From: Candidatus Omnitrophota bacterium
Lineage (GTDB): Bacteria > Omnitrophota > Omnitrophia > Omnitrophales > Aquincolibacteriaceae
Length of the DNA stretch: 64,000 nucleotides
Direction: 5' to 3'
Assembly (NCBI GenBank): GCA_030698625.1
Contig: JAUYMS010000040.1
Coordinates: forward strand, 21,499 to 85,498
This document shows positions 17,389 to 51,617 of the stretch, in pieces. Both the position numbers and the translations under genes were made by a program. Below the pieces are notes generated by a model. It worked only from the letters and a program-made list of their open reading frames with translations, made no database searches and was not told the origin of the DNA. The first letter of the stretch is position 1, and the number at the start of each line of letters is the position of its first letter.

Positions 17389-18345
17389 GTGTTCCTGATT
17401 GATTCTTACATCCGAGACCGCCTTGTAAGAAAGGTGCGTGCAAAGAAAGAAAAAATCGCCCGTTTGGGAACTCCCTATACAGAGAATCCCAAAGTTTCAG
17501 CGGTTGTCACCTCGTACAATCACAGGGCCAACATCAAGCCGATTCTCGAAGCTTACAGAGCCGCAGACCTTGAGGAATTGATCGTTTGCGAAGATGGTTC
17601 CCTCGACGGCTCCCGCGACGAATGGCTCAAGCATCTGCTTAGGCCGAATGATTTCCTGATTGTCTCCAACGAACTGAATGAACTTCGGATCTACAATCGC
17701 GCCATCAGTCTCGCTCGCGGAGAAATAGTGATCGTCAATCAGGACGACGATATTCCCCCCCAAGACGCAAGTTGGATTCGTGATGCGGTACGCCTTTTCG
17801 ACAAGTATCCGCGGTTGGCGATTTTGGGTGCGTTGGAGGGCGCTCAACAGCCAATCTTTACCCTCGACAATTACTACCGCGTCAAATCTCTGGCTGAGCG
17901 TCTCGGGCAGGCAAAATTCAGAATACCCCGTAAAGAGATACAACATCGCGATCCCGAACTCGGAGTCGGTTTTATGTTCATCGATGTCGTCAATAACGGG
18001 CCGCTGATCTTCCGCAGACAGGCTTATCTCGAACTCGGAGGCCTGGATACGTCTCGTAGTAAGGCAGGGGAATCCATGATGTTTATGGATTACGATCTTT
18101 GTTATCGTGCTTGGCTTGCCGGTTGGCAGGTGGGGCTCTATGAGCACGCTCCGTTTGTGACCAATGCGGGCCAGCGAGCCTCGGTTCTTTTTGCCCATGG
18201 GGATCGTAAGAAGCGCGGGAAGGAAACTCGCGAATACCTGAATCAAGCTTATTCACACGTCTATGAGGATGTCGGGAGCCGGGCACGTCGGTTGAACGAG
18301 GAGTTTCTCACCTTGGCTGATCACAAAGAAACGGTGAATAGTTGA
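17389..18345 (+). CDS. GT-A fold glycosyltransferase (GT2-like)
   Basis: VVTSYNH...CEDGSLDGS...NQDDD. Paralog of the ORF at 28811. GTG start. Confidence 0.6.
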   Translation: MFLIDSYIRDRLVRKVRAKKEKIARLGTPYTENPKVSAVVTSYNHRANIKPILEAYRAADLEELIVCEDGSLDGSRDEWLKHLLRPNDFLIVSNELNELRIYNRAISLARGEIVIVNQDDDIPPQDASWIRDAVRLFDKYPRLAILGALEGAQQPIFTLDNYYRVKSLAERLGQAKFRIPRKEIQHRDPELGVGFMFIDVVNNGPLIFRRQAYLELGGLDTSRSKAGESMMFMDYDLCYRAWLAGWQVGLYEHAPFVTNAGQRASVLFAHGDRKKRGKETREYLNQAYSHVYEDVGSRARRLNEEFLTLADHKETVNS

Positions 18346-19691
18346 AACCTACGGTTCAGAGGAATGTCTCGGTTGTTGGGCTCGGAAAGCTCGGGTTTCC
18401 GTTCTCTGTTTGTCTTGCCAATAAGGGATTTAACGTCTGGGCCGTCGACAACGATGCCGTAAAATTACGCACCCTCAAGGCTGGGCATTCGATGCAGTAT
18501 GAACCGGGCTTGCGGGCGTTATGGCACAAGTCACGCAAGCGGGTGCACCTCACCGCAGATTACGCGGAAGCGATAGCGAATACTAATATTACATTCGTGG
18601 TAGTTCCTACCCCGAGCAAGAAGGACGGCAGCTTTACATCCCGTTATGTTCTGGACGCCTGCCGCAAAATCGGAAAAGTCCTGAAGGATAAAAAACGTTT
18701 TCATTTAGTCGTCATCACAAGCACCGTGGTTCCGGGCACGGTGGACACGAAAATCCGGTCTGCTCTCGAGGCCGAATCCCGCAAGAAGTGCGGTGCCGGA
18801 TTCGGCCTTTGCTACAATCCGGAGTTTATCGCATTAGGCAGCGTCATCCACGACCTGTACCACCCCGATTTCGTTCTCATCGGCGAGTCTGACAAAAAGT
18901 CGGGGGACCTTCTGTCTACCGTGTACGCGAAATTCTGCGGGAAGCATGTCCCGCTTGCCAGAATGAACTTCAGTAATGCGGAGCTGACAAAACTGACGCT
19001 GAATGCCTTCGTCACAATGAAGATATCCTACGCCAATATGATTAAACAGTTCTGCGAGGGACTTCCCGGCGGAAATGTGGATGTGGTGACCGGTGCCCTC
19101 GGACTCGACAGGCGCATCGGCTCCCGCTACTTGAAGGGCGGCCTCGGCTACGGGGGCCCATGCTTCCCAAGAGACAATCTGGCATTACTGCATACGGCCC
19201 ATAAGATGTCTGTGAGGGGGAGTCTTCCGGAGGCCACGCACGAATTCAACAAACGTGAGATTCACCGCCTAGCCAAGCTTGTGATCGAAAAGCTGCCGCG
19301 AGGAGGCAAGGTCGGAATTCTGGGTCTTTCTTACAAGCCGAACACGAATGTTGCCGATGAAGCCCAGGGCGTTTTGCTGGCACGTTTTCTGGCGCGCAAA
19401 CGTATTCCCGTAATTGTGTATGACCCCGTAGCCACCGATAACGCCCGTAAATTACTCACATCAAGAGTTGAATTTGCCTCATCAAAGGCCGAATGCTTGT
19501 CGCAGGCAGATATCGCTGTCATCACGACTCCGTGGGAAAGATTCAAGCGCTTGAGGGGCACGGACTTTAAGCGATCAAAGCGCAAGCCGATCGTGATTGA
19601 TTGCTGGCGTATTCTGGACACCGCCAAGCTCCGGAACCATGTGGAGTACTTGCCGCTCGGCGTCGGGCGAGAAATAACGGTTCACACATAG
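18342..19691 (+). CDS. NDP-sugar 6-dehydrogenase (UDP-glucose/GDP-mannose dehydrogenase family)
   Basis: VVGLGKLG Rossmann motif. Catalytic-Cys motif GYGGPCFPRDN (cf. GGSCFPKD). 449 aa. Confidence 0.8.
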   Translation: MKPTVQRNVSVVGLGKLGFPFSVCLANKGFNVWAVDNDAVKLRTLKAGHSMQYEPGLRALWHKSRKRVHLTADYAEAIANTNITFVVVPTPSKKDGSFTSRYVLDACRKIGKVLKDKKRFHLVVITSTVVPGTVDTKIRSALEAESRKKCGAGFGLCYNPEFIALGSVIHDLYHPDFVLIGESDKKSGDLLSTVYAKFCGKHVPLARMNFSNAELTKLTLNAFVTMKISYANMIKQFCEGLPGGNVDVVTGALGLDRRIGSRYLKGGLGYGGPCFPRDNLALLHTAHKMSVRGSLPEATHEFNKREIHRLAKLVIEKLPRGGKVGILGLSYKPNTNVADEAQGVLLARFLARKRIPVIVYDPVATDNARKLLTSRVEFASSKAECLSQADIAVITTPWERFKRLRGTDFKRSKRKPIVIDCWRILDTAKLRNHVEYLPLGVGREITVHT

Positions 19692-19692: not shown

Positions 19693-20427
19693 ATGAACGC
19701 ACATGATCCGCTTTACATTTTCTTTCATATTCACAAAACAGCGGGCACAACGTTTGCGATGCATTTGCAGGAAAATCTGGCCGGGGATGAACGCCTAGCT
19801 GTTTATCTGAAATCGGTTGAAGTGGATGCCTTTAATGATTCGCTTGCGCAAATGCCACCGGCTCAAAAGGGTAGACTAAAAGTAATTTACGGGCATCGGG
19901 TCTACGACGGTATTCATAAACATTTTAACCGCGAGGCCCGGTATTTCACTTTTCTCCGCGACCCCGTCGCCCGCACCCTTTCACACTACAATGGGCAGAT
20001 GCAGTTACTGGAGAAACGACACTATAAGAAGACCCCGGGCTTACCCTTCCGGCCCCAACCTTTTAAAGAATGGCTCTTCTCGGACACATCGCAGTGGAAT
20101 GCAATGGCCCAGGAACTCATCCGAGTCTTTTTACAAACGCATGTAGTCCGTGAAGAAATGAACGAGACACATCTCAATACGGCAAAAGGAGTCCTCGACC
20201 GGTTCTTTTTTGTGGGAGCTACGGAGCATTACGAGGAAGATGCGTCTTATTTGTATAATCTGATGGGAATCACCAAGTTTGTGCCTGATTGCCGAGTCAC
20301 CCTAAAATCGTACTACGAGGGGGATCCGGAGGAGGCCAGGCAATGGATACGGCAGAAAGCCCCCCTAGATGTCGCCTTATACTCCCACGCCCTCCGGCTC
20401 AGGCGCAGGAGCCAAGTCACAACTTGA
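19693..20427 (+). CDS. Sulfotransferase (PAPS-dependent)
   Basis: 5'-PSB HIHKTAGTT and 3'-PB RDPVARTLSHY. Paralog of the ORF at 43439. Confidence 0.7.
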   Translation: MNAHDPLYIFFHIHKTAGTTFAMHLQENLAGDERLAVYLKSVEVDAFNDSLAQMPPAQKGRLKVIYGHRVYDGIHKHFNREARYFTFLRDPVARTLSHYNGQMQLLEKRHYKKTPGLPFRPQPFKEWLFSDTSQWNAMAQELIRVFLQTHVVREEMNETHLNTAKGVLDRFFFVGATEHYEEDASYLYNLMGITKFVPDCRVTLKSYYEGDPEEARQWIRQKAPLDVALYSHALRLRRRSQVTT

Positions 20428-20613
20428 ATATCATGCCTGCCATATCACATTTCCCGGTGGGCGCCATGAACAATTCTTGAATTCAACCATATTCCCAGGA
20501 TAGGCCCTCTTGATAAACCGTAGGGCGCGGCGAACATCGCCTTGCGACGTGTTGTCGAAATAAGCCTTACCGTCACAAGCAACGATTCTTATATTCGCAC
20601 TCATGTAAGTCGT

Positions 20614-22168: not shown

Positions 22169-22918
22169 ATGGACCTAACGCGGGTAAAGAAGGGGATTAA
22201 TGATATTGTTTTTCGGTGGCTGATACGGCCGCATGTCAAGAGGTTGGTGAAGTACAGTCTCAAGGATCAGCGGAAGCACTTCCTTAAGGACAGGAAGATG
22301 CATGAGCTGCTCAAGACCCGGCTTGAGTCAATTGACCTTGAGGAGCAGCTCTTCAAGGACGCCAAGCCTTGCGGCAAGCGATTTGAACTGCTTTCGCGTG
22401 CCGTGGAGCAGGCCAAACGCTTTGACGGCGGGGAGCTCTGGCTTGAGTTCGGGGTCGAGGCTGGCGCATCCATTAATCACATTGCAGGCGAAGTGCAATC
22501 GACGGTCTACGGATTTGACACCTTCACGGGTCTTCCTGAGGCATGGAAGACAGGCCTCTATCATCATGCGCGAAAGGGTAAGCGCAGTCTTGATGCCGTA
22601 CTGCCGAAGGTGGCGTCGAACGTTGAGTTGATTCCGGGGCTGTTTGAAGACACCTTACAGCCGTTCTTAGAAAAGCATGCGGAGCCCGTCGCTTTTGTCC
22701 ATATCGATTGTGACTTATACAGTTCAACAAAAACAGTGTTTCGTCAATTAAAGCTGCAAGTCGGGAGCGTGATCGCCTTCGATGAGTATTACAACTACCC
22801 AAATTGGAGAGAGGGGGAATACAAAGCCTTCCATGAGTTCTTGGCCGAAAGCCAGATGACAGCGAAGTGCCTCGGTTTTTGTCCGCGATCGGGACAGGCG
22901 GCGTTTATCCTATGCTAA
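22169..22918 (+). CDS. TylF/MycF-family SAM O-methyltransferase
   Basis: LEFGVEAG...YGFDTFTGLPE...VHIDCDLYSST...FDEY. First of a tandem pair. Confidence 0.7.
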   Translation: MDLTRVKKGINDIVFRWLIRPHVKRLVKYSLKDQRKHFLKDRKMHELLKTRLESIDLEEQLFKDAKPCGKRFELLSRAVEQAKRFDGGELWLEFGVEAGASINHIAGEVQSTVYGFDTFTGLPEAWKTGLYHHARKGKRSLDAVLPKVASNVELIPGLFEDTLQPFLEKHAEPVAFVHIDCDLYSSTKTVFRQLKLQVGSVIAFDEYYNYPNWREGEYKAFHEFLAESQMTAKCLGFCPRSGQAAFILC

Positions 22919-23676
22919 GTAAAATTTTACCGAGTTCAGTGAAACGATGGTTTCATGATTTTGTGTTCAGGATCGTCCGTTCCAATTCAAGGCGTATCGT
23001 CAAGTATATCCTTGAGGACCGCCACATCCAGGAGCAGCTCAAGGCCCGACTGGAATCCATTGAGCGCGAGGATGAATTGTTTGGTGATGGGGTAATTTTC
23101 AAGAACCGCACAGGCCTTATTGAGCATGCGCTGAAACAAGTACCCGAGAGATTACGAAACGGGCTTTACCTGGAGTTTGGTGTAGCCAACGGAAAATCCG
23201 TAAACCTCATCGCGAGGAATATTCAGACGAGGGTCTATGGTTTTGATTCCTTTGAGGGACTTCCCGAGAAGTGGGTCACCGGCAAGTACAGCAGTGCGGT
23301 CCAGGGAAAACACAACCGCAACAAAACATTGCCTAAAGTGGAGCTCAATGTCGAACTCGTTCGCGGATGGTTCCACGACACTGTCCCCGGTTTCTTGCGC
23401 GACCACCCGGGTCCTGTGGCGTTTGTGCATGTCGATAGCGACCTTTATGAATCAGCGCGATACATTTTCTCACAACTAAAATTAGAAAACGAGACCGTGA
23501 TCGTTTTCGACGAGTACTTCAACTTCCCGGCCTGGAAAGAGGGCGAATATAAGGCCTTTCAAGATTTTCTGACGGCACGCGGAGCAACCGCTCGATGCAT
23601 TGGCTACTGTCCGCGAAGTCAGCAGGCGGCTTTTGTGCTCTCACTTAATTCCGAAGGAGCTCCGGCTTTTGCATAG
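22912..23676 (+). CDS. TylF/MycF-family SAM O-methyltransferase (tandem paralog)
   Basis: LEFGVANG...YGFDSFEGLPE...VHVDSDLYES...FDEY. ATG at 22912 overlaps the upstream stop (ATGCTAA). Confidence 0.7.
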   Translation: MLSKILPSSVKRWFHDFVFRIVRSNSRRIVKYILEDRHIQEQLKARLESIEREDELFGDGVIFKNRTGLIEHALKQVPERLRNGLYLEFGVANGKSVNLIARNIQTRVYGFDSFEGLPEKWVTGKYSSAVQGKHNRNKTLPKVELNVELVRGWFHDTVPGFLRDHPGPVAFVHVDSDLYESARYIFSQLKLENETVIVFDEYFNFPAWKEGEYKAFQDFLTARGATARCIGYCPRSQQAAFVLSLNSEGAPAFA

Positions 23677-25483
23677 TATCCAAACAATAGACAAACCAAC
23701 CGAGTTTTATAGCGCCTTGGAGAAGGAGGAGACTGCCTGCGTACTCTGCGGTTCTCTGCAGCATGTGCTCGTGTCAAACAGGGACCGCTATCACATGGGC
23801 ATTCGCACCGTCATGTGTCGGCAATGTGGATTGGTCTTTACGAATCCGCGCCCAAGCCAGAAGGCCATGCGGCAGTTTTACAGAGATTCCTACGCCGAGT
23901 TCTACTTCAGCACTCCGCATCCCGCCATGGATTATAGACGGGGGTCGGATATTCATAAACGGGCAAAGAGGTTATTCGGATTTATCCGGCCTATACTTGA
24001 TGCCAAGGGAAAACGTGCTCCGACCGTGTTCGATGCAGGGTGCGGATCCGGCGTACTGCTGCATCTGTTTCGTAAAGTTTACCCCACCAGTATTCTCTAC
24101 GGCGCCGAATTGAATCCGGCGCTGGCGCGCTATGCCGCTAAGCGCAACGACGCCATTGTCTATGATGGGGGAATCGAAGAAGCGGTCAGCAGCGGCACCG
24201 CCAGGCGCGGATCCTTTGATGTCATTATTCTAAATCACGTCCTTGAGCACCTCCACGATCCAGTAGGGCAGCTCGGCACCTTGCGTGAGCTTCTGAAGCC
24301 AAACGGCCATCTTTTGGTCGAGCTTCCCGACATCACATCGCCGTACTGGCGCGATCCCTATGAGATGTTCCATATCGCTCATCTGTATCACTTTTCACCG
24401 ACCACCTTGCGGGGCGTTCTAAATCGCGGAGGCTTCAATGTAATTCGAGAATTTCCGGCAAAACTTTCAGTCAACCCTTGGGCGATCGCCGTTGCCTGCG
24501 AAAGCAAGCTCGATCTACTCGACAGCCGGGACCCGTTCGAAAGTCTCAGCCGTGACAGGTTCGAAGAACTCTTCGCCAAGATTCAGGCCGTTATTTGCGC
24601 GAAAGGTTTTTCTAAATCACTCAGGCGCGCCATGCGGGCGATCCCGCCCGTTCGTTTTGTGAGGCAAGCCTTTGCCTACTGTTGGGACTACGGATTTCGC
24701 ATGGCGTTCGCCAAGGCGTCACACGTGCTTGCGGATGCGTTAGCAACTGCGGCCTATCCGGTTTTATACCCGTTTCTACGCCTGCGTTGGCGTGTGGCAC
24801 GCATCGCTAATAATCCGGTTTACGAAAAGGCCCTCCGGTCTAAGCGCGTTCTTATTTTGGGCTCCGGCCCCTCAGCGGCCGAGCTTGAGACGATTCCGAA
24901 TGATGTGGTCGTCATGACCTGCAACCGGGGGCTTCGTCTGCTGGTGGAAAAGAGGATACCGCATGCCCTCGACATCTTCGTCTGTACCGAAAGCCGCATG
25001 CAGAGGCTCCCCATGATCACGGAATGGTTATCTGAGCTTAAAACCACCACGATCTTCATGGATCATCCGGGTTTCATCAGGAAGGACAAAAAACTTCGGG
25101 ATCACTACTCGGAGGTTCGCTACGAGGACGGTCGAGACAATTTTTTCCTGAGTGACATGATTGCCCCCGAAAGGGTGCGGAATCTGAGGGGTAAATCGCG
25201 CCATCCGTGGACATCCACGAGCATTCGACAAATGCTGATCGCTCTTCATTACCAGGCCAGGGAAGTCTACTTATGCGGCGTTGATTTAGGCCGCGAGGGC
25301 TATTTCTGGGGGGTCAGCGACGCGAGCTGGGACCACGATGACATCGACGAAAACGTCCTAAAGATTGCTTCGACCAAACACCGAAATCTTTACTGCCTCT
25401 CCAAGGCCAGCCCGATTACCCAGTATATTTCGCACAAAAGCTTTGATAGCCCAGCCTATGAAACGGAGGTTGCAAATTCATGA
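23669..25483 (+). CDS. Fusion: Zn-ribbon + class I SAM methyltransferase (N-terminal) and CstII/GT42- or DUF115-like glycosyltransferase domain (C-terminal)
   Basis: N-terminus has CxxC...CxxC, then VFDAGCGSGVL...ILNHVLEHL. The C-terminus (RVLILGSGPSA...VVMTCNRG...VYLCGVDLGREGYFWG...NLYCLS) follows the CstII pattern GNGPSL...FRCNQ...YLSGIDFY. Likely TTG start near 23669. Confidence 0.6.
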   Translation: MHSIQTIDKPTEFYSALEKEETACVLCGSLQHVLVSNRDRYHMGIRTVMCRQCGLVFTNPRPSQKAMRQFYRDSYAEFYFSTPHPAMDYRRGSDIHKRAKRLFGFIRPILDAKGKRAPTVFDAGCGSGVLLHLFRKVYPTSILYGAELNPALARYAAKRNDAIVYDGGIEEAVSSGTARRGSFDVIILNHVLEHLHDPVGQLGTLRELLKPNGHLLVELPDITSPYWRDPYEMFHIAHLYHFSPTTLRGVLNRGGFNVIREFPAKLSVNPWAIAVACESKLDLLDSRDPFESLSRDRFEELFAKIQAVICAKGFSKSLRRAMRAIPPVRFVRQAFAYCWDYGFRMAFAKASHVLADALATAAYPVLYPFLRLRWRVARIANNPVYEKALRSKRVLILGSGPSAAELETIPNDVVVMTCNRGLRLLVEKRIPHALDIFVCTESRMQRLPMITEWLSELKTTTIFMDHPGFIRKDKKLRDHYSEVRYEDGRDNFFLSDMIAPERVRNLRGKSRHPWTSTSIRQMLIALHYQAREVYLCGVDLGREGYFWGVSDASWDHDDIDENVLKIASTKHRNLYCLSKASPITQYISHKSFDSPAYETEVANS

Positions 25484-27747
25484 GGTCTGAAATCTGCCTC
25501 ATCCTCACGTCATCAATACAGCCTCTAAGCGATGAGTTCGTCCGGCGGAATGACCCCGCGTTGCGGCTCGCAGATTATAAACAGGCTTTCGAGCAATGGC
25601 TGTCGAAGCAAAGCGCCTTTCAAAAGATCGTTTACGCTGATAACTCAGGCCATTCCTTGTCCGAACTGGAGTCCGTCGCACGCAGATACCCCGCCAAACA
25701 GGTTGAATTTTTATCCTACAGAGACAGCGACTCTTCACGAGGCAAGGGCTATTGCGAACTGGGCTTGATTCGCTATGCCTTGGAGCATTCGAAGCTTATG
25801 TGCGAAACAGATTATTTCGCTAAGGCCAACGGTAGAATCTTCGTTGAAAACATAGAGGCTATTGCGCGGAGGTTACCGGCGCAATTTGACTGTGTTGCCA
25901 GTTTCAAGAAAAACCTCTGCGTTGTTCTTTCTCATTTCATTCTTTTCCGTAAGCATTCCTACCTCACGCATATCCAGCCGGCCGCGCTTCGGTTCGTCGA
26001 TGACACCCAACGGAAATATCTTGAAGAGGGGTTTGCTAAGGCGATCTTATCCGGAATCTCTCACGACATGAGGTGGTATCCCTTTCCGGCAGAGCCCCGC
26101 GTAAGCGGTATTCTCGCAACAAAGAGCAAGCGGTATGAGCAAAATGCCTGGTATTCGTTTTGGGGAACCCTCATCTCTGGTCTTTTCCATACTTTCTACG
26201 GGACCGCGAACTCCAAATCACGAATGCACGTGCTTGAGGCCCGGGCGCGGCGAGAACAGAATCAGCGCGAGAAGGGGACGACGATCTCGGTTGTTTTGAC
26301 GGTACACAATAAGGAAGGCCTCATCGAGCGGGTGATCACATCCATATTCAATAACGTCTCGCCGCTGGTCAAAGAGATCATCGTTGTTTTGGACGGCTGC
26401 ACGGACCGCTCAGAACAAATATTGAGAAAACATACCGAGTCTCAGCAAAAGAGCAAACGGATCATTTACGAATATACGCCTGACGTATTCGAAACCAAGG
26501 CGAATAATGCAGGACTCAAACGGTGCTCCTCGGACTACGCCCTGCTAATCCAGGACGATATGGTTATCGAGGAGAAGCACTTTGACCGGCGGCTGCTGCA
26601 GCCGTTCCTGCATTTTGACGATGTGTTTGCGGTTACTGCCAAAAATGCCGTCAATGATGTCATCCGCAATGGACGCGTAGTTTCTGAGGACCGAGTGAGT
26701 CCGCGCTATTTGCCGCGCAATGTCTTTGCCGTTCGCGACGTGGTCAACCGCGGTCCTCTCATGATTAAGAGGTCATGCCTGGAACAACTCGATTACCTGG
26801 ATGAGTGGTTTGCGCCTCAGGATTACGACGAGCACGATCTCTGCCTGCGCGCCTACCGCGATTTTGGCTGGGTGTGCGGTGCGTATTCCGTCCGGTATAC
26901 GTCGAAACGCGGGTGGCATTCATCCATTGTCGGAAAAAATGCGGACTTCATTACACGGGCAAAACTGCAAAATGAACAGAAAATCATCGCACGACACCGC
27001 GATCTTTTGGCGGCACCGAAGCACACTGAGGATCGGATTATAGAGTATCAGGAGTACGCGCCGCCTAGGATGTCCAAGCGACTATCGAAGGGCTGGAAAC
27101 GAATGAATCCGCTTTCCCGGACCGCCAAGCAGTCGTACAAGAAGCCCTCATCATACCCTACTTATGAATCGTATCTCGATCATCAACGGGAAAAAACATC
27201 GCATGCAGGCCGGCGTAAAAAGTGGGCCGGAAAAATCGGAGTCAAGCGGAAAGCGGCTTTCCTGGCCGCCTTTGCCCGGCATAAAGATATTCTCAGCCGC
27301 TGCAGAAATGCCGCCTGTCTTGGAGCGAGGCTCGGACAAGAAGTTGAGGTCTTGCGTGAACTGGGGCTCGATGCCATAGGGATCGATCTCGTACCCCACG
27401 AACCGCTTGTCATAAGGGGGGATTTTCACCATTTGCCCTTCGAGAATCAGTCGCAAGACTTTGTCTTCACAAACTCATACGATCATGCCCTTCGGCCGCA
27501 GCAATTTCTTGCGGAAATCGAAAGAGTATTGAAACCCGGCGGGTACGTTGTGTTTCATCTGCAAATGGGCAGAGGATTAGGAAAGTACGACGTCACTCAG
27601 ATAAGCAGCAGCAGCGAAATCATAAGTCGTTTCGACCGCGTGAGCGTCGAGAGCGACGGCCGGATGGAAGACTGTTGCGCTATGAATTGGGAGATCGTTC
27701 TTCGGAAAGAGCCATCGGAGAATCTTGTGGGGCACGGAAAATCGTGA
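25480..27747 (+). CDS. Three-domain protein: unknown N-terminal domain + GT2 glycosyltransferase + class I SAM methyltransferase
   Basis: Middle domain: ISVVLTVHNKEG...VVLDGCTDRS (GT2). C-terminus: LGARLGQEVEVLRELG...GDFHHLPFENQSQDFVF...LKPGGYVV (Methyltransf_11-like). ATGA overlap with the upstream gene. Confidence 0.65.
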   Translation: MRSEICLILTSSIQPLSDEFVRRNDPALRLADYKQAFEQWLSKQSAFQKIVYADNSGHSLSELESVARRYPAKQVEFLSYRDSDSSRGKGYCELGLIRYALEHSKLMCETDYFAKANGRIFVENIEAIARRLPAQFDCVASFKKNLCVVLSHFILFRKHSYLTHIQPAALRFVDDTQRKYLEEGFAKAILSGISHDMRWYPFPAEPRVSGILATKSKRYEQNAWYSFWGTLISGLFHTFYGTANSKSRMHVLEARARREQNQREKGTTISVVLTVHNKEGLIERVITSIFNNVSPLVKEIIVVLDGCTDRSEQILRKHTESQQKSKRIIYEYTPDVFETKANNAGLKRCSSDYALLIQDDMVIEEKHFDRRLLQPFLHFDDVFAVTAKNAVNDVIRNGRVVSEDRVSPRYLPRNVFAVRDVVNRGPLMIKRSCLEQLDYLDEWFAPQDYDEHDLCLRAYRDFGWVCGAYSVRYTSKRGWHSSIVGKNADFITRAKLQNEQKIIARHRDLLAAPKHTEDRIIEYQEYAPPRMSKRLSKGWKRMNPLSRTAKQSYKKPSSYPTYESYLDHQREKTSHAGRRKKWAGKIGVKRKAAFLAAFARHKDILSRCRNAACLGARLGQEVEVLRELGLDAIGIDLVPHEPLVIRGDFHHLPFENQSQDFVFTNSYDHALRPQQFLAEIERVLKPGGYVVFHLQMGRGLGKYDVTQISSSSEIISRFDRVSVESDGRMEDCCAMNWEIVLRKEPSENLVGHGKS

Positions 27748-31843: not shown

Positions 31844-31845
31844 AC

Positions 31846-33543
31846 ATGATAGAAGTAACCACCAGAGAGTTGTCAAAGCAGCCCTCGACTGAAAAGCCCA
31901 ATGCCGTGATCTGGTACCTGGCAGTCCGGCCGTCTATAATCGACAGTTTGCGAGGGCTCTATGAGCACTTCAATAACCAGTACAAGTACCCGGTCATCAT
32001 CTTCACTTTCGGGCAGCCCTACTCAAAGGCCTTCATTAGCAAAATTCATCGAACCATTGACCCCGCGATTCGCTTTGTCAAAGTAAAGCCGCGCATTCCG
32101 GCGAATGTGCCTGAAAGCGAGCTCTTCTATAACCGCAAAGACATTCGCTATGTGCGCAAGAATTTCCCCGAAACCCGTATCGGATATCTCCATATGTGCC
32201 ACTTTATGGCAGGCGGTTTTCTCGACACAAAAGAGTTAGATGGCTACGACTGGGGCATGCGCCTCGATGACGACTCCTTCTTTTTGGAAGACATCTCCTT
32301 TGATTTCTTCCGCGTCATGCGCGATGGGCGATATCTCTATGGCACGGGGTATGAAAATGACCGCGAGCTTGCGCCGAAGCGAAGCGTCAATGATTGCACG
32401 AGCGGACTCTGGGAATTTACGGATGCCTATATGAAGAAAAACAGTATTGAGTCTGACTGGATTCAGCGTCACAGGCGCTCAGACGGAAGCTTTCACTATG
32501 TAGTCGGTGCAGGAAACATGACGCTGTGGAATCTTAACCTGTTCCGCAGCCCAGAGTGGCGTAGTTGGTGGAAGACGCTGCTCGAATCCGGCGGAATCTA
32601 TAAGTATCGTTGGGGCGATCAAGAAATCCACCGCCTCTTTATGCAAATGCAGTTCAAAGAGTCCGAGTGGAAATCATTCGCCCCCGAGCTCCTTGATTGC
32701 CGCTACAAGCATGAGTCGGTTCCGGAAAAACGCAAGTACTGGCACGGCGGGTTGGGGATGTGGCACACAAAACCTCATCGCTCTGCCGCACTCGCAGAGC
32801 ATCTGCGCGGCTACATGCGCAACCTTGCCCGGGCGTTATCCCCGAGAAAGTTCCTCGCTAGCCTTCGCCCGAAGCAACAGATGAACCTCACCGAAATGGG
32901 CAGACGCTTTCATGCGGAAAAGGCAGACCCGACAAGGCAGTATTTTGGCAAGTGTCTTACCGAGATTTACGAGCCCTATTTGACGGCATTTTGCGGGAAA
33001 CCCATTAAGTTGCTTGAGATTGGCGTGGCACGTGGGAAATCGCTGAGGATGTGGGCGAAATATTTCCCGCAGGCAAAGATCTTCGGGCTCGACATTAACC
33101 CTATAACTAGGAAATACGAGCGCGGAAGAATTCGGATTATTATCGGGTCCCAAAACGATCCGAACGTACTAGATGGAGTGAGCCGGGAAGCGGGCACACT
33201 TGACATCATCATCGACGACGGCAGTCACGTCAACACCCACATCCTTCAGTCCTTTGAAACCCTGTTCCCAAAACTGAATTCCGGCGGCGTTTATATCATC
33301 GAGGCTCTCCACTGTTCGTATCAAGATCTCGAAACAGCCGGGGGCATCGGGGTGCGTGAGGGATCGCGTCAAGGCTTGGGGTGGAGCGGCATGCATCTCA
33401 ATCCCGAGTCGGAATCTTTCACTAATCACCGCGAAGACATGGATCGTTTCTTTCTTGAGCGCATCAAACAACTGGATCACAAAGAAGGCAGTATTCAAAG
33501 CATCCACTTCTGGTCACGGACCTGTATCATCACAAAGGTATAA
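31846..33543 (+). CDS. Fusion: GT15 (Kre2/Mnt1-type alpha-1,2-mannosyltransferase) domain + CmcI/Methyltransf_24-like SAM methyltransferase
   Basis: The N-terminus aligns by eye to yeast Mnt1: YKYPVIIF..., YLHMCHFMAGGF..DGYDWGMRLDDDSFF (cf. YRHMCRFQSGFF..EYDWYWRVEPD) and NLNLFRSPEWRSW...GGIYKYRWGDQEIH (cf. NLNLWRSPAYREY..GGFFYERWGDAPVH). The C-terminus has LLEIGVARGKS...IIDDGSH...GGVYIIE. Confidence 0.7.
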   Translation: MIEVTTRELSKQPSTEKPNAVIWYLAVRPSIIDSLRGLYEHFNNQYKYPVIIFTFGQPYSKAFISKIHRTIDPAIRFVKVKPRIPANVPESELFYNRKDIRYVRKNFPETRIGYLHMCHFMAGGFLDTKELDGYDWGMRLDDDSFFLEDISFDFFRVMRDGRYLYGTGYENDRELAPKRSVNDCTSGLWEFTDAYMKKNSIESDWIQRHRRSDGSFHYVVGAGNMTLWNLNLFRSPEWRSWWKTLLESGGIYKYRWGDQEIHRLFMQMQFKESEWKSFAPELLDCRYKHESVPEKRKYWHGGLGMWHTKPHRSAALAEHLRGYMRNLARALSPRKFLASLRPKQQMNLTEMGRRFHAEKADPTRQYFGKCLTEIYEPYLTAFCGKPIKLLEIGVARGKSLRMWAKYFPQAKIFGLDINPITRKYERGRIRIIIGSQNDPNVLDGVSREAGTLDIIIDDGSHVNTHILQSFETLFPKLNSGGVYIIEALHCSYQDLETAGGIGVREGSRQGLGWSGMHLNPESESFTNHREDMDRFFLERIKQLDHKEGSIQSIHFWSRTCIITKV

Positions 33544-41523: not shown

Positions 41524-42498
41524 GTGAAATTTATCGTTACAGGCGCCGGTGGTTTTATTGGGCACCACCTTGTGAGCCACTTGAAAAAATCTGGCGCGGA
41601 AGTTATCGGCATCGACATCAAGCATCCCGAATTCGAGCAGTCAAAGGCCGACCGCTTTGAGATACAGGACCTGCGCGAACCCATAACGACATGGAAGCAT
41701 CTCTTTGAGGGCGTTGACGACGTTTGGGCACTCGCGGCAGACATGGGGGGCATGGGATTCATCTCTCAGAATCATGCCCAAATTATGACGAGTAATGTCA
41801 TGATTAACATCCACACGCTTGAGGCCGCCAAGCTGGCTAAAGTGAAGCGCTATCTCTACACATCCTCAGCCTGCGTGTACCCCACACACCTGCAGTCGAA
41901 AACAAATGTCAAGCCGCTAGCCGAGGATATGGCGTATCCCGCAGACCCTCAAGACGGTTACGGCTGGGAAAAAATCTACACCGAGAAAATGTGCCAGTAC
42001 TATCATGCGGAATACGCGCTGGATACACGTATCGTGCGATTTCACAATATCTACGGACCTGCGGGTACTTGGAGGGGCGGCCGTGAAAAGGCCCCCGCCG
42101 CCTTATGCCGGAAGGTTGCCGAGGCCATCGAGACCGGGACAGATGCCATCGAGATCTGGGGCGACGGAGAGCAAACGCGAACCTTCTGTTATATCGATGA
42201 CTGCGTAACGGGTCTTCAGAAAATCATGGATTCCGGATACAACGAGCCGCTCAATCTTGGCCGAGACGAGATGGTTTCCATCAATGAGCTTGCCGATGTC
42301 GTGGCAGAAGTCGCTGGAGTAAAACTAAAAAAAGTTCATGTGGACGGACCTCAGGGCGTTCGAGGAAGAAACTCGGACAACGCTTTATTTCAAAGACTCA
42401 TGGGTTGGAGCCCGGCAATTGATCTCAAAACCGGCATAGCCCAAACCTATCCTTGGATACAGCAACAGGTACGCATGGGGTCAAAGTCCCCCACTTGA
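41524..42498 (+). CDS. GDP-mannose 3,5-epimerase-like SDR (tandem copy 2)
   Basis: Same motifs as the upstream paralog (ADMGGMGFISQNHA, YGWEK). GTG start with RBS gggaggag. Confidence 0.7.
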   Translation: MKFIVTGAGGFIGHHLVSHLKKSGAEVIGIDIKHPEFEQSKADRFEIQDLREPITTWKHLFEGVDDVWALAADMGGMGFISQNHAQIMTSNVMINIHTLEAAKLAKVKRYLYTSSACVYPTHLQSKTNVKPLAEDMAYPADPQDGYGWEKIYTEKMCQYYHAEYALDTRIVRFHNIYGPAGTWRGGREKAPAALCRKVAEAIETGTDAIEIWGDGEQTRTFCYIDDCVTGLQKIMDSGYNEPLNLGRDEMVSINELADVVAEVAGVKLKKVHVDGPQGVRGRNSDNALFQRLMGWSPAIDLKTGIAQTYPWIQQQVRMGSKSPT

Positions 42499-42509
42499 TT
42501 TGGAACCCT

Positions 42510-43442
42510 ATGGAAAAAATACAAAATAACTTGAAGAACGCTGAGACGGCCAAATTCCAGCCGAATCTCTTTATCCTCGGGGCAGCCAAATGCGGCACCA
42601 CGACCCTGCATTTTTATCTCGACACCATGCCTGAAATTTGCATGTCCATGCCCAAGGAACCTCACTTTTTTGAAAAGGAATATGATAAGGGGATTACGTT
42701 CTATAGGGACAAGTATTTTGCGCATTGGAACGGGGAAGCCATCATTGGTGAGGCGCGCCACAGAAATCTCTTTCTGCCTTATGTCGCCGAGCGAATCTAC
42801 AGGACAAATCCACAGGCCAAGTTAGTGGCGATATTGCGAAACCCGGTAGCCCGTGCCTATTCTCACTGGTGGCACTTTTATTCGCGCGGACACACCAAGC
42901 TTTCTTTCAGCAAAACGATTCGGGCCAATCGGGAGCGTCTGGAAGCGAGACTCGAAATTCGGAGACCGGATGACTACTTCAAGAGGGGCCTGAAGCCGTA
43001 TGTGAACAAAGACACATGCATCGAATCGGGCTATTACTTTGAACAGATTCAACGCTACCGCGCCTATTTCTCGGACAGCCAAATTAAGCTTATCCTTTTT
43101 GAGGATCTGGTCCAAAACCCGCAGCAAGTATTGGCCGATCTGAGAGCGTTACTGGGGCTGGAACCAGAGAGCAAAATTATTTCGCCTCTCACGAACATGA
43201 ATCCTCACAAACTCAAGCAGGTTTCTCTGCCATTGCGTCGCATTCAGAAAAAGTTTCGCCTCCGGGAAATTCTTCCTGATTTCGCTTACGAGTATCTCAA
43301 GCATTTCTTTAAGCTAAGTCTACGGCGCCCGAGAATGCCCGGACATACGCATCGCTGGCTTATTCAGCATTATGAAGTTCACAACGAAATGCTTGCCAGC
43401 TACATGAATCGTGACTTATCACACTGGAACCGGATGTCATGA
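42510..43442 (+). CDS. Sulfotransferase (PAPS-dependent)
   Basis: 5'-PSB LGAAKCGTTTL and 3'-PB ILRNPVARAYSHW. ATG at 42510; the track start at 42453 overlaps the upstream gene. Confidence 0.7.
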   Translation: MEKIQNNLKNAETAKFQPNLFILGAAKCGTTTLHFYLDTMPEICMSMPKEPHFFEKEYDKGITFYRDKYFAHWNGEAIIGEARHRNLFLPYVAERIYRTNPQAKLVAILRNPVARAYSHWWHFYSRGHTKLSFSKTIRANRERLEARLEIRRPDDYFKRGLKPYVNKDTCIESGYYFEQIQRYRAYFSDSQIKLILFEDLVQNPQQVLADLRALLGLEPESKIISPLTNMNPHKLKQVSLPLRRIQKKFRLREILPDFAYEYLKHFFKLSLRRPRMPGHTHRWLIQHYEVHNEMLASYMNRDLSHWNRMS

Positions 43443-44422
43443 ACCCCGTCTACGTCTTCCTCCATCTTCGCAAAACCGCCGGCAGTACGCTAAAGTACCA
43501 TCTGAGAAAGAATTTCCGGCCCGGCGAAATCATTTTCATAAACCCCAAAAGTGATACGCATGTAAGCGTCTACTTTGAGGATTGGCAGAAAGAAATGACT
43601 CGGGAAGAGTTGGCCGCCTATCTCGGCGGGTTACCCCAAAATAAGAAGGATCGCCTCAGGATGATCTTCGGGCATAGGGTGTATTCAGGGATCCACGAAC
43701 CTCTGGGTCGTCCGGCACGATACATTACGTTTCTTCGTAATCCCGAAACCAGAACGCTTTCCCACTACAACTGGTATCTCGAAAAGAAGATCCGCCAAAA
43801 CGGGAGTAGCACAAAAGCGCGTTTGACCGATGATCACTTCCGCGCCTGGCTTCAAGCCCCTGAATCACCGGACAATTTCATGACTCGTGTCCTCATCGAA
43901 TCCTTTCAATCGAAGCCGTCCACGAAGAGAGAGCTTGCGTCCAACGACCTCGAAAGGGCTAAGACGCTGCTCAAGTCCTTCTATTTTGTAGGTATTACCG
44001 AACAGTATGACCGCGACGCGGCATTTCTCTACGAGCAATTCAGCATCATTCGTTTTTTTTCAAATCAAAAGATCTCAACTAAATATTACGTCCCTGAAGA
44101 TCGCGAGGCCGTCGCAAAACTGATTCGAGACAAGTGTTGGATCGACTGTGACCTTTATGCCTACGCCAATCATTTAAACCAACGCTTTCGAGAGGCAAAC
44201 AAAGAGTTTGCCCGCTGCGTCGGACAGGCGAGACGGGTCAAGCGCGTTGCCGCCAGAATGGGTACGGTCATGCGGTGTGCGGGTACTCTCAAACGACTGC
44301 CATACGCGGTCCTGCCGGAACGCACCAAGCGCCGAGAAGCCTATGATGAAATTTGTCAACAGATACGCGACGCCGTAAAGCGGGTGTTTTTTCGCAAGTT
44401 GGCCCGGAGGGAGTCACGGTAA
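43439..44422 (+). CDS. Sulfotransferase (PAPS-dependent), paralog of the ORF at 19693
   Basis: LHLRKTAGST...FLRNPETRTLSHY. Confidence 0.7.
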   Translation: MNPVYVFLHLRKTAGSTLKYHLRKNFRPGEIIFINPKSDTHVSVYFEDWQKEMTREELAAYLGGLPQNKKDRLRMIFGHRVYSGIHEPLGRPARYITFLRNPETRTLSHYNWYLEKKIRQNGSSTKARLTDDHFRAWLQAPESPDNFMTRVLIESFQSKPSTKRELASNDLERAKTLLKSFYFVGITEQYDRDAAFLYEQFSIIRFFSNQKISTKYYVPEDREAVAKLIRDKCWIDCDLYAYANHLNQRFREANKEFARCVGQARRVKRVAARMGTVMRCAGTLKRLPYAVLPERTKRREAYDEICQQIRDAVKRVFFRKLARRESR

Positions 44423-49261: not shown

Positions 49262-50763
49262 AATTTGTCACCCTCGTAACGCAGGATTATCTCCCAGGGT
49301 TCTATGCGTTAATGCAAAGCATCGCAGACCACGGCGGGCTCGAGCCCTCGGCTAAATTCCTGGTGCTTTACGCCGACGGGCAAGTTCTTCGGCACGCCCC
49401 GCAAATTCGCAAGTTTGGTTTTCAGTTTGAATTTCTGGATATCCACACCCTGGGAAAGGCCCACGCACCGCTTGCCGAACGGGGAAGAAATAAATTCCAA
49501 ATCGCCCTTCAGAAGCTTCTGATTTTTAAGATCCCGTCCGAGGAGAAGCTGTGTTTCATTGATTCCGATATGCTATGCCTCAACTCGCTCGATGGCGTCT
49601 ACGCGATGGAGCACTTTTCCATTGCTCCCGACAAACCCAAAAAGTATCTCCGTGATCGACTGCCCGTTCTAAACACCGGATTCATGGTCTTTAGCCCCTC
49701 GTCGGCCCTTTATGATGAAATCACGGAGTACATCAATCAATCATCGGAGACTTTTGATTGGGGCGATAACGGGGTCTTAAACCACTTCTTCTACGACCGG
49801 AGACCTGAGGAGATACACCTAGTCGATCGCAATTGGAACATGCGTAAAAAGGCAATGATCCATCAGCCTAAAAGCTTCGATCTTAAAAAGATTCGGCTGC
49901 TCCATTTTGTCGGCAACAACCCCTGGACTCACTTCGCCGGATTTCTGGCTGTTATGGCCTATGAGCGCGACTATCTCTCGCTCAATATACTCTGGTGGAA
50001 CTACTATCTTCGGTCTCAACTTGCGGCAGGCTTTCTGCCCGCATCCAAAGCGCTTATCGCCAGCATCCCTGCCGGCTTTATTGGGGCGGCAGTTAGCTTT
50101 CTCGATTTTTTTAAATTCGCGGCGGGAAACCGTATCAGCTCTTGGCTTGAGGCGAATCTAAAGAGTCTCTGGGCCAATACTGTCAAATATGCCCGGATTA
50201 AGTATACTCGCAAGATTCCCGCCAGGCAGGATTTTCCGCTGCTTTTGAGATCACTCAAGGCACAGGGGAAGGGCGTAGAGATCGGTGTGGCTCAGGGACG
50301 TTTTTCAGAATTCCTCCTAAAAAGCGGTGAGATTTCCCATCTCGTGTGCATCGACCCATGGAAGGAACAATCCCCGGACGTCTATCAGGATGTGAATCAC
50401 GTCTCAGATGAGGAATATGAACGCCGCTACTGGAATGTCTCGCAGCGCCTAAAGAAGTACGGAGAGAAAAGCCGGGTCATGCGCATGACATCTGAAGAGG
50501 CCGCGCCTCATTTTGACCGCGAAACCCTCGACTTTGCCTATATCGATGCCAATCACTCGTATGAGGCGGTCAAGCAGGACCTAGAGCTGTGGTGGGACAA
50601 GGTCAAGCCCGGAGGAATTTTCGCCGGTCATGATTACCTGAACGGAAAGTTGCCTGAAGGAAATTTCGGGGTCAGAAGAGCGGTCGACGAATTCGTAGAA
50701 GACCGCAACCTTCAATTGCACGTGACTCGCGAGCGCTGGCCCACGTGGTACGTGATTAAATGA
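49258..50763 (+). CDS. Fusion: GT8 glycosyltransferase domain + class I SAM methyltransferase (Methyltransf_24-like)
   Basis: N-terminus: FVTLVTQDY...CFIDSDM (DxD)...LLHFVGNNPW (GT8 HxxGxxKPW). C-terminus: VEIGVAQGRFS...FAYIDANHSYEAV...GGIFAGHDY. ATG at 49258 overlaps the upstream stop. Confidence 0.65.
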   Translation: MKFVTLVTQDYLPGFYALMQSIADHGGLEPSAKFLVLYADGQVLRHAPQIRKFGFQFEFLDIHTLGKAHAPLAERGRNKFQIALQKLLIFKIPSEEKLCFIDSDMLCLNSLDGVYAMEHFSIAPDKPKKYLRDRLPVLNTGFMVFSPSSALYDEITEYINQSSETFDWGDNGVLNHFFYDRRPEEIHLVDRNWNMRKKAMIHQPKSFDLKKIRLLHFVGNNPWTHFAGFLAVMAYERDYLSLNILWWNYYLRSQLAAGFLPASKALIASIPAGFIGAAVSFLDFFKFAAGNRISSWLEANLKSLWANTVKYARIKYTRKIPARQDFPLLLRSLKAQGKGVEIGVAQGRFSEFLLKSGEISHLVCIDPWKEQSPDVYQDVNHVSDEEYERRYWNVSQRLKKYGEKSRVMRMTSEEAAPHFDRETLDFAYIDANHSYEAVKQDLELWWDKVKPGGIFAGHDYLNGKLPEGNFGVRRAVDEFVEDRNLQLHVTRERWPTWYVIK

Positions 50764-51617
50764 ACCAGGCCACCATCGAAGAAGTGGCATCCTTCTGGAA
50801 CCGTCGTCCGTGCAATGTCCGCCATTCGCCAAAGCCGCGGGGAACTCGCGAATATTTTGAGGAGGTCGAGGCGCGGAAATACTTCGTCGAACCGCATATC
50901 CCTCGTTTTGCAAAATTTGACGAATGGAAGGGTAAAACGGTACTCGAGATCGGCTGCGGCCTGGGGACTGACACCGTCCATTTTGCCAGAGCCGGAGCCA
51001 GGGTGACGGCAGTGGATATTTCCGATCAATCCCTGGAACTCGCTAGGAAGCATGTAGACGTCTTCGGGCTTTCTGATCGCGTGTCTTTTTATCACGCGGA
51101 TGCCGAGAAACTCACGGATGTAATTTCGCCCCAACCTTTTGATTTGGTCTACTCCTTCGGCGTCATTCATCACACGCCCAATCCCGAACGGGTGATTCAG
51201 CAAATCAGAGAAAATTACGTAGAACCGGCGAGCGTGCTGAAGCTGATGGTGTATTACCGCTATGCCTACAAGGTTATTATGATTCTATTGAAGGAGGGCA
51301 GAGGGGCCTTCTGGCGACTGGACGAGCTCGTGGCCCGTCATTCTGAAGCCCAGACTGGCAGCCCCGTCACTTATCTCTATTCACGCCGCCAAATGCGACA
51401 CCTCTTAGAGGGCTTTCGAATCGAAGAAATGGGGGTGGAACACATTTTCCCTTACCGTGTCGCCGAGTATAAGAATTACCGCTACGTCAAATCCTGGCCC
51501 TTTAACTTTCTGTCGAGCGGCGTCACTCGCTGGATCGAGAGTGTTCTGGGTTGGCACCTTTGCGTAACTGCCCGGCCTTGCGCTTCAAACGACTCCAGAG
51601 CGTCAGCTTCTTTTTAG
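50760..51617 (+). CDS. Class I SAM methyltransferase (Methyltransf_11/25-like)
   Basis: VLEIGCGLGTD...VDISDQSL...FDLVYSFGVIHH. The 3' end overlaps the convergent gene by ~95 nt, so it may be over-extended. Confidence 0.65.
   Translation: MNQATIEEVASFWNRRPCNVRHSPKPRGTREYFEEVEARKYFVEPHIPRFAKFDEWKGKTVLEIGCGLGTDTVHFARAGARVTAVDISDQSLELARKHVDVFGLSDRVSFYHADAEKLTDVISPQPFDLVYSFGVIHHTPNPERVIQQIRENYVEPASVLKLMVYYRYAYKVIMILLKEGRGAFWRLDELVARHSEAQTGSPVTYLYSRRQMRHLLEGFRIEEMGVEHIFPYRVAEYKNYRYVKSWPFNFLSSGVTRWIESVLGWHLCVTARPCASNDSRASASF

Follow-up and report, generated by a model that had tools for sequence, protein, structure and literature searches.

Several described pathways share parts of their make-up with a roughly 58 kb glycan gene cluster that we analyzed in Candidatus Omnitrophota, in a 64,000-nucleotide stretch of contig JAUYMS010000040.1 (positions 21,499 to 85,498, assembly GCA_030698625.1; hereinafter the window, in whose coordinates genes are named by their first position). 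The Escherichia coli O8/O9a polymannan systems combine Wzm and a Wzt that bears a binding domain at its C-terminus with genes for modifying enzymes right after wzt, where the chain terminator WbdD is placed. The window has the same components, but a sulfotransferase and a small methyltransferase (MT) follow wzt in the place of WbdD. The S-layer glycan cluster of Geobacillus stearothermophilus NRS 2004/3a is likewise dependent on an ATP-binding cassette (ABC) transporter and codes for WsaE, which joins MT and glycosyltransferase (GT) domains in one polypeptide; in this system, Wzt is thought to recognize the methylated chain end (PMC2943079). WsaE, which we liken to the window proteins by domain make-up alone and not by sequence, serves a poly-rhamnan and its cap with a single MT domain, whereas the MT domains of the window number 15, fall into at least four sequence types and include fusions to GT2, GT8, GT15 and sialyltransferase-like domains, with sulfation and phosphonate functions besides.

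In the chlorovirus PBCV-1, the MT fused into the GT-GT-MT protein A064R methylates O-2 of the rhamnose that its own GT adds, and the stand-alone A061L then methylates O-3 (PMC9614988). A comparable division of labor between fused and stand-alone MTs is what we propose for the window, some of whose GTs are of eukaryote- or virus-like GT-A families (GT8, GT15, GT77-like). However, the viral product is the N-glycan of a capsid protein made with two MTs, while that of the window would be a bacterial, lipid-linked and exported glycan served by 15. The mycobacterial MMP and MGLP provide a precedent for glycans with most of their residues O-methylated by S-adenosylmethionine (SAM)-dependent MTs. The MMP cluster comprises four genes, with two MTs and one mannosyltransferase, and operates intracellularly (PMC9883506), whereas the exporter, the ligase and the many MTs and GTs of the window point to structural heterogeneity rather than to a methylated homopolymer. 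With somewhat better than even confidence, we read the window as coding for a cell-surface glycan of the lipopolysaccharide O-antigen type, which would depend on an ABC transporter and be tailored with methyl, sulfate and phosphonate groups by the mechanism proposed below.

Methyltransferase domains and their fusions to glycosyltransferases

We scanned the 53 long open reading frames (ORFs) of the window against Pfam, with the gathering scores as threshold, and found 15 class-I SAM-dependent MT domains in 15 intact ORFs (Table 1), the number that an earlier sequence-only reading of this DNA had estimated for a glycan locus. Thirteen lie above the gathering score, and the other two (5500 and 38947) are recovered by leave-one-out profiles, in which all other MT matches were gathered and the tested gene was left out. 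Pfam, paralogy and the leave-one-out tests also bear out, item by item, the MT domains that the same reading had listed. The check that it had proposed, for matches to MT profiles and for decayed genes, came out in its favor: most ORFs match such profiles, none of the 15 is a pseudogene, and the glycine-rich SAM motif I is present in every uninterrupted frame, though divergent in 25480. The range of 17389 to 51617 that it had given encloses 12 of them, while 5500, 51523(-) and 62667 lie outside. MTs account for 15 of the 53 genes of the window and 13 of the 31 in the 35.2-kb core from 17389 to 52572, a core density of 3.7 per 10 kb. For 15 in 53, the binomial probability ranges from 2e-15 to 3e-8 for background MT frequencies of 1.5–5%, which are our own assumption.

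In six of the 15 proteins (23669, 25480, 31846, 34281, 47339 and 49258), the MT domain shares its polypeptide with a GT-like domain, and in three of these (25480, 31846 and 49258) both halves exceed the Pfam thresholds. The N-terminal half of 31846 finds the yeast alpha-1,2-mannosyltransferase Kre2/Mnt1 in PDB (1s4n, E = 2e-16), whereas its C-terminal half finds the sugar 2-O-methyltransferases MycE and TylE (3ssm, E = 9e-25; 8ia9, E = 1.5e-24). The MT domains of 34281 and 49258, both C-terminal, are 41% identical. Homologues of the 49258 Methyltransf_24 domain occur in fusions with GT8, GT34, Mannosyl_trans3, Nucleotid_trans, GT4, GT2, MptE-like and FkbM domains, with at least seven GT families as partners. 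They are spread over many phyla and come from Peribacteraceae, Pirellulales and Phycisphaerales as well as from many metagenome contigs. Judged by this distribution, the domain is a portable module for glycan tailoring and is not confined to the source organism. As the locus gathers several such fusions of a widespread and uncharacterized module, it could reveal how glycosyl transfer is coupled to methylation. Neither the fusions nor the four sulfotransferases nor the phosphonate pathway had been mentioned in the finding of the sequence-only reading.

Among the remaining MTs, 5500 has no match in Pfam or NCBIfam and is a paralogue of the TylF-like pair 22169/22912. All three proteins keep a DxDxYxS stretch, which we take to be the metal-binding motif of the TylF family. 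The best solved relatives of 22169 and 22912, TylF/MycF and CalS11 (a TDP-rhamnose 3′-O-methyltransferase and the best solved relative of 22169, E = 3e-6), and those of the 31846 MT domain come from macrolide and enediyne pathways. They differ from the window MTs in that the latter stand in a polysaccharide locus, are in part fused to GTs and share low identity with them. For several MTs, the nearest proteins of solved structure are O-methyltransferases of sugars, namely MycE/TylE and CalS11, which makes an O-methylated glycan the best reading of their predicted products.

The three Methyltransf_23 proteins (23669, 47339 and 51523(-)) share four invariant N-terminal cysteines (CxxC...CxxC), a pattern that suggests a zinc ribbon. 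A word-prefiltered search of 5.8 billion proteins returned 30 matches to this family at E ≤ 1e-10, and the named ones are mostly from Omnitrophota. Its one weak match in PDB, the sugar 3-C-methyltransferase TcaB9 (4rv9, E = 4e-4), provides an idea only. A relationship to WbdD was considered for this family and dropped, as no WbdD chain is among the PDB matches.

The claim that such density exceeds that of known clusters holds against the characterized systems that we checked (two MTs for MMP, one MT domain in WsaE and two MTs in PBCV-1) but not against Omnitrophota relatives or one unrelated locus. Loci that contain 47339-family relatives, assigned to Omnitrophota by the named matches, are MT-rich, with 4–7 MTs per 20–30 kb or 2–2.8 per 10 kb. 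These include 7 MTs in 30.5 kb of JACPWF010000025.1 (loci L003 and L006), 4 MT domains in 22.8 kb of CAYWRU010000022.1, and a JGI contig with a TylF-like gene and three tandem Methyltransf_23 proteins of 540–605 residues in 19.7 kb. An MsbA-like exporter, an ELM1-family gene or WaaL adjoins the MTs in three of four relative loci (L002, L003 and L012), and a profile search of genome contigs with the ELM1-family alignment returned three loci, all already among those found. The same three relative loci display, beside their MTs, a trio that is absent from the window, namely an FGE-sulfatase/BNR_2 fusion, a GSCFA-family protein and a TylF-like MT. L003 and L012 also contain a 2OG-Fe(II) oxygenase resembling that at 4613-5479(-) of the window.

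By comparison, three control loci from other phyla with a homologue of the GT-Methyltransf_24 fusions contain that single MT each in 14–22 kb. Counts in these comparisons rest on two iterated home-made MT profiles, which give the same numbers as Pfam for the window, L002, L003 and L012, and which other MT families may escape. A search of metagenome contigs with the four-cysteine Methyltransf_23 family gave 75 loci, of which nearly all the distant ones hold the anchor MT alone per ~20 kb. Relatives of the exporter, ligase, sulfotransferase, LicD and PepM proteins were found in none of 46 of the 48 metagenome loci of at least 6 kb, which makes this set of little use as a baseline for glycan loci. 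The exception is L075 (Ga0247841_10000026, 125930-146730), with 8 MTs in 20.8 kb or 3.85 per 10 kb: Pfam finds Methyltransf_11 in 8 of its 19 ORFs, adjoining GT4, GT2, NeuB, a domain of the CMP-sugar synthetase type and an ABC exporter. With a GC content of 37% and only 25–30% identity to the window proteins, L075 shows that MT-dense glycan loci also occur independently in an unrelated lineage. The total of 15 in the window is the largest among the loci compared, the comparison loci being truncated at ~20 kb.

MT density is thus far above chance and above the characterized clusters checked, yet not unique. Going by the loci compared, it is a trait of the Omnitrophota clade, with a counterpart in one or more unrelated lineages. 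Since MMP is polymethylated with two MTs, a large number of MT genes is a sign of many distinct acceptor sites and a complex structure, and no measure of how much methylation there is. Of the polymethylated polysaccharide originally predicted, the O-methylated glycan remains as the best reading, but the equation of MT number with simply much methylation does not. Taken alone, so many MTs are extreme in number but represent no new principle. The most interesting aspects are instead the collection of GT-MT fusions and the Fom3-type enzyme seemingly recruited to glycan decoration.

The phosphonate module and its radical SAM enzymes

Upstream of the MT-rich array, a phosphonate core codes for a phosphoenolpyruvate (PEP) mutase (PepM) fused to an NTP_transf_3 domain, a phosphonopyruvate decarboxylase (Ppd) and an iron-dependent alcohol dehydrogenase (Fe-ADH). 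The mutase domain reaches 191 bits in Pfam and displays the Ppm-specific EDKRFPKINS at residue 120, with an NCBIfam score of 314 just under the cutoff of 319.6. Ppd is above its NCBIfam cutoff (360.8 against 312.5), and a Pfam match confirms the Fe-ADH. The genes for three B12-binding radical SAM enzymes (7637, 10059(-) and 15839) all lie upstream of 17389, outside the range that the sequence-only reading had given. As they sit in the PepM/Ppd/Fe-ADH module and 10059(-) is Fom3-like, their use as evidence for C-methylated sugars falls away. The gene 7637 is located between those for the GDP-mannose dehydratase and a small cytidylyltransferase, and its product has the KedN5 C-methyltransferase as best NCBIfam match (284 bits, under the cutoff of 700). 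The best NCBIfam matches of 15839 are PhpK and HpnJ (~108 bits, far under their cutoffs).

The remaining enzyme, 10059(-), belongs to a tight orthologous group with 56–65% identity in Streptomyces, Micromonospora, Neorhizobium and others. In Micromonospora cathayae (CP118615.1, 1120240-1141862), the corresponding gene stands between a PEP mutase gene and the genes for HppE (1zz6, E = 2e-74) and an NTP_transf_3-DUF402 fusion, i.e., FomD (5zdm, E = 3e-64), which are followed by a gene of the amino-acid-kinase family. This is apparently a fosfomycin-type cluster, and its radical SAM enzyme would therefore represent the Fom3 step. That step of the fom pathway is the C-methylation of cytidylyl-2-hydroxyethylphosphonate. 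By orthology, 10059(-) probably C-methylates CMP-hydroxyethylphosphonate and not a sugar. The Micromonospora cluster additionally codes for an 820-residue protein, and genes of the nonribosomal peptide synthetase type adjoin it.

The window accordingly resembles the fom pathway in its PEP mutase-cytidylyltransferase-type fusion, Ppd, Fe-ADH and Fom3-type enzyme, and holds Fom1-like, Fom2, FomC and Fom3-like functions plus a LicD-like transferase, in which it resembles Pnt clusters. The cytidylylation step of Fom1 has been described (PMC6697681). However, Pfam finds no Cupin_2/HTH_3, DUF402 or AA_kinase match among the window ORFs that would represent the HppE epoxidase, the FomD hydrolase or the FomA/B kinases, and the locus is therefore not a fosfomycin (antibiotic) cluster. 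Cell-surface phosphonyl tailoring is typically marked by LicD-like transferases and Ppm-PF12804 fusions (PMC6697681), and the window has both the NTP_transf_3 domain on its PepM protein and LicD in a glycan neighborhood. The characterized Pnt clusters, in contrast, make 2-aminoethylphosphonate and not C-methylated 2-hydroxyethylphosphonate, the branch to the latter being found in ~8.5% of Ppm neighborhoods (PMC8942020). From the co-occurrence of a Fom3-like enzyme and LicD in a glycan locus without HppE and FomD, we infer a phosphonate-decorated glycan, carrying 2-hydroxyethyl- or, more probably, 2-hydroxypropylphosphonate. We know of no characterized Fom3-type gene inside a glycan locus. If this one acts as predicted, cobalamin-dependent phosphonate C-methylation would extend from antibiotics to cell-surface tailoring.

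Export, ligation, sulfation and the remaining genes

Of the components of an ABC-transporter-dependent O-antigen pathway, the window has Wzm with 6 hydrophobic segments, Wzt with its Wzt_C domain, and a WaaL-type ligase (Wzy_C, 69.9 bits) with 9 hydrophobic segments. The nucleotide-binding domain of Wzt finds the Aquifex Wzt in PDB (8dku, E = 7e-71), and the Wzt_C match (77.7 bits, gathering score 30.4) confirms the C-terminal module that the sequence-only reading had seen in this glycan cluster. The order of wzt with its Wzt_C domain, sulfotransferase and MT (60429-63416) recurs in a contig of JGI 3300042731, with two sulfotransferases. Because the genes just after wzt are for a sulfotransferase and then an MT, we posit that sulfate is an equally good candidate as methyl for the mark that Wzt would read, and that it may be part of the terminal export signal. 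A terminator of the WbdD type is not in evidence, as Pfam finds no kinase domain in the window; no search was aimed at a coiled-coil ruler.

The locus has ~14 soluble GT-like and 15 soluble class-I SAM-dependent MT domains, besides four sulfotransferases and one acetyltransferase. Membrane segments are predicted in none of the proteins with MT, GT or sulfotransferase domains, and these tailoring enzymes are cytoplasmic. Two further proteins (29844-30869 and 46206-47342) show weak SGNH/GDSL matches and N-terminal hydrophobic segments. Likely periplasmic or membrane-anchored, they stand alone in this respect among the tailoring enzymes of the array, with a possible role as O-acyl esterases or transferases. 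The tandem genes for NAD-dependent epimerases/dehydratases in 40535-42498 are 71% identical, and by that measure would be the most recent duplication in the locus.

The element of the IS200/RAYT type is complete and lies just upstream of the TylF-like gene 22169, after a 646-nt non-coding stretch. Inverted repeats of 37 nt (21073-21109 and 22139-22175) flank it, with the palindrome GTCAAGTCTCGACTTGAC in either copy. Directly upstream of the glycan locus, ORF 55-4629 (+) codes for a protein of 1524 residues that has no hydrophobic segment, no Pfam match and no sequence relative in PDB. Very long proteins with unassigned functions are a known feature of Omnitrophota (preprint 10.64898/2026.06.07.730766). 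Rfam and tRNA scans of the window returned no match.

Table 1. Blocks, genes and elements of the window, in order of their first position
Position	Strand	Feature	Evidence or content
4613-17377		Block A	2OG-Fe(II) oxygenase, divergent TylF-like MT, GDP-mannose 4,6-dehydratase, small cytidylyltransferase, phosphonate genes, three B12-radical-SAM genes
5500..6354	+	Divergent TylF-like MT	33% identity to 22169 (blastp E 4e-8); leave-one-out 38.1 bits; motifs ILEFGVAGGEG, DLDFYSS
6512..7633	+	GDP-mannose 4,6-dehydratase	GDP_Man_Dehyd 448 bits
7637..9622	+	B12-binding radical SAM enzyme	Radical_SAM and B12-binding domains; CxxxCxxC at residue 203
10059..11684	-	Fom3-type B12 radical SAM C-methyltransferase, predicted substrate CMP-2-hydroxyethylphosphonate	63% identity over 97% length to Micromonospora cathayae protein
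11785..15739	+	Phosphonate core: PEP mutase fused to NTP_transf_3, Ppd, Fe-ADH	Pfam/NCBIfam
15839..17377	+	B12-binding radical SAM enzyme, directly after phosphonate genes	Radical_SAM 82.7 bits
17389-51617		Block B	GTs, GT-MT fusions, UDP-glucose dehydrogenase, three epimerases/reductases, three sulfotransferases, LicD, two SGNH-like proteins, IS200/RAYT-like element
17389..18345	+	GT2 glycosyltransferase	Pfam
18342-19691		UDP-glucose dehydrogenase	Pfam
19693..20427	+	Sulfotransferase	Sulfotransfer_2 34.9 bits
21073..22175	+	IS200/RAYT-like element	Y1 transposase fused to DnaA_C helix-turn-helix (21178-22164); Y1_Tnp 56.4 bits
22169..22918	+	TylF/Methyltransf_24 MT	TylF 34.6 bits (gathering 23); motif HIDCDLYSS
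22912..23676	+	TylF/Methyltransf_24 MT	TylF 35.4 bits; 49% identity to 22169 (blastp E 2e-81)
23669..25483	+	Four-Cys N-terminus, Methyltransf_23, MptE-like C-terminus	78.9 and 20 bits; 36% full-length identity to 47339
25480..27747	+	N-terminus without assignment, GT2, Methyltransf_11	Glycos_transf_2 58.5, Methyltransf_11 46.6 bits; motif I divergent, CLGARLGQE; leave-one-out 24.6 bits
27675-28814, 28811-29737, 36532-38181, 39702-40538, 44426-45355, 45352-46209		Further stand-alone GT-like genes	44426 and 45352 under gathering scores
30866-31843, 40535-41509, 41524-42498		Epimerases/reductases	Pfam
31846..33543	+	GT15 (Kre2/Mnt1-like) and MycE/TylE-like sugar O-MT	Glyco_transf_15 95.3, Methyltransf_24 33.6 bits
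33547..34284	+	LicD-family phosphotransferase, predicted to put phosphonate on glycan	LicD 50 bits
34281..35900	+	Weak GT77-like N-terminus and Methyltransf_24	Methyltransf_24 70.0 bits; Nucleotid_trans 19.5, under gathering 22
35897..36535	+	Stand-alone MT	Methyltransf_24 56.5 bits
38181..38957	+	Stand-alone MT	Methyltransf_24 48.2 bits
38947..39699	+	Methyltransf_11-like MT	Pfam 17.3 bits, under gathering 21.2; leave-one-out 39.7 bits; motifs IHVGCG (GCG-type motif I), FIEHL
42453..44422	+	Two sulfotransferases (Sulfotransfer_1/3, then Sulfotransfer_2)	55.2, 23.5 bits
47339..49261	+	Four-Cys N-terminus, Methyltransf_23, sialyltransferase/Maf-like (GT42-type fold) C-terminus	Methyltransf_23 85.3 bits
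49258..50763	+	GT8 (glycogenin-like) and Methyltransf_24	Methyltransf_24 79.1, Glyco_transf_8 33 bits; glycogenin E 2e-13
50760..51617	+	Stand-alone MT	Methyltransf_31/25/11 68.4 bits
51523-63416		Block C	MT(-), ELM1-family(-), MsbA-like exporter(-), unknown(-), GT2, WaaL, acetyltransferase, Wzm, Wzt, sulfotransferase, MT
51523..52572	-	Four-Cys Methyltransf_23 MT	71.5 bits; 43% identity to 47339, without C-terminal domain of 47339
51523..59675	mixed	Conserved envelope block: ELM1-family(-), MsbA-like exporter(-), unknown(-), GT2, WaaL-type ligase, hexapeptide acetyltransferase	Pfam
59621..61838	+	Wzm (ABC-2 permease) and Wzt (nucleotide-binding domain and Wzt_C)	ABC2_membrane 55.9, ABC_tran 83.2 bits
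61840..62670	+	Sulfotransferase directly after wzt	Sulfotransfer_1 55.5 bits
62667..63416	+	MT, second gene after wzt	Methyltransf_25 47.1 bits

A model of the glycan pathway and its alternatives

We propose that each fused MT would O-methylate the residue that the GT domain of the same protein has just transferred, for which chlorovirus A064R and Geobacillus WsaE are precedents, while the stand-alone MTs would add further methyls or methylate nucleoside diphosphate (NDP)-6-deoxyhexoses before transfer. The variety of MTs would then reflect many distinct acceptor residues and positions, and with these a glycan that does not repeat or whose repeat unit is long and complex. A parallel Fom-type pathway of the PepM-cytidylyltransferase fusion, Ppd, Fe-ADH and the Fom3-type radical SAM enzyme would lead to CMP-2-hydroxyethylphosphonate and probably on to CMP-2-hydroxypropylphosphonate, from which LicD would move the phosphonate onto the glycan. 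Finally, Wzm-Wzt would export the finished chain after reading a terminal mark, possibly sulfate and/or methyl set by the products of the two genes after wzt, and WaaL would ligate the exported chain. A bolder proposition, which we advance only tentatively, is that the GTs of Omnitrophota each carry or recruit an MT of their own, the outcome being a long, largely non-repeating glycan with a dozen or more distinct methyl positions, sulfated, and capped or decorated with 2-hydroxypropylphosphonate.

Several observations weigh against the proposed tailored O-antigen-type glycan. NCBIfam provides no family-level name for 10 of the MTs and no match at a curated cutoff, and two of the three radical SAM enzymes (7637 and 15839) likewise match no curated family at cutoff. 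By sequence, the C-terminal domain of Wzt has no significant solved relative in PDB, the solved Wzt binding domains included. A polyprenyl-phosphate initiating transferase of the WecA/WbaP type is not found, the 53 ORFs having no Glycos_transf_4 or Bac_transf match, though it may lie outside the window. Moreover, ~14 GT-like domains are more than usual for an ABC-transporter-dependent polymer, and several glycans may be encoded.

This last point leads to the alternative that survives best, though we consider it unlikely: two or more ordinary glycan clusters, e.g., for a core oligosaccharide, an O-antigen and a second polymer, have been concatenated, and the MT count is summed over their products. 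Besides the GT number, it would account for the paralogue pairs 19693/43439, 23669/47339 and 34281/49258 (35–41% identity by blastp), which are partly collinear and point to an old internal duplication, and for the division of the array at 20428-22175 by the IS-like element and the non-coding stretch. In relatives, the MsbA-like/ELM1-family/WaaL block is separable from the variable part, and a 2026 preprint calls the polysaccharide cassettes of Omnitrophota hypervariable. The paralogue sets, the IS-like element and the hypervariability of the cassettes speak for a mosaic history. However, the 27 genes from 21178 to 51617 form a one-strand array, mostly with 4-bp overlaps and a biggest gap of 106 bp, and the window has a single Wzm/Wzt exporter and a single ligase, with no Wzx/Wzy polymerase pair or second exporter detected by Pfam.

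It is more doubtful still that the stand-alone MTs act mostly on NDP-sugars in the manner of CalS11, or on non-sugar acceptors such as the phosphonate, with the polymer being assembled from a few types of pre-methylated 6-deoxyhexoses. Such a pathway would be in keeping with the methylation of TDP-rhamnose by CalS11, the best solved relative of 22169, with the supply of 6-deoxyhexoses by the GDP-mannose 4,6-dehydratase and the three epimerases/reductases, and with the position of 5500 within the sugar-nucleotide/phosphonate sub-cluster. Yet six MTs are covalently joined to GT-like domains, and the two characterized precedents for this architecture act on the transferred residue. The MT domain of 31846, for its part, is related to MycE and TylE, whose substrates in mycinamicin and tylosin biosynthesis, respectively, are sugars that the aglycone already carries. 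Finally, we reject a density artefact from spurious ORFs, decayed pseudogenes or chimeric assembly as highly improbable: although the sequence is that of a metagenome-assembled genome and two MT domains out of 15 are under Pfam thresholds, all 15 MT ORFs are intact with SAM motif I, both sub-threshold domains (38947 and 5500) pass the leave-one-out tests, the same proteins are annotated at NCBI, those of 47339-49258, 49258-50760 and 10062-11684 being 100% identical to entries from a 135-kb contig labeled Candidatus Omnitrophota bacterium, the GC content is even across the window (0.48–0.57), and an independent Logan assembly of run SRR13727534 reproduces the sequence with 0 mismatches in 15,963 nt over 27581-43543 (100% identity).

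Returning to the tailored surface glycan that we favor, its broader form would imply a surface-polymer class without a characterized counterpart, with 2-hydroxypropylphosphonate as a head group unreported on any glycan. Omnitrophota are ultra-small and thought to be host-dependent. If the proposal is true, they would expose a strongly methylated, and so partly hydrophobic, glycan that is also sulfated and phosphonylated, a hidden trait of a major uncultured phylum. This would have a bearing on cell-cell attachment, on evasion of phages and predators, and on the persistence of methyl-sugars and C-P compounds in groundwater and sediments.

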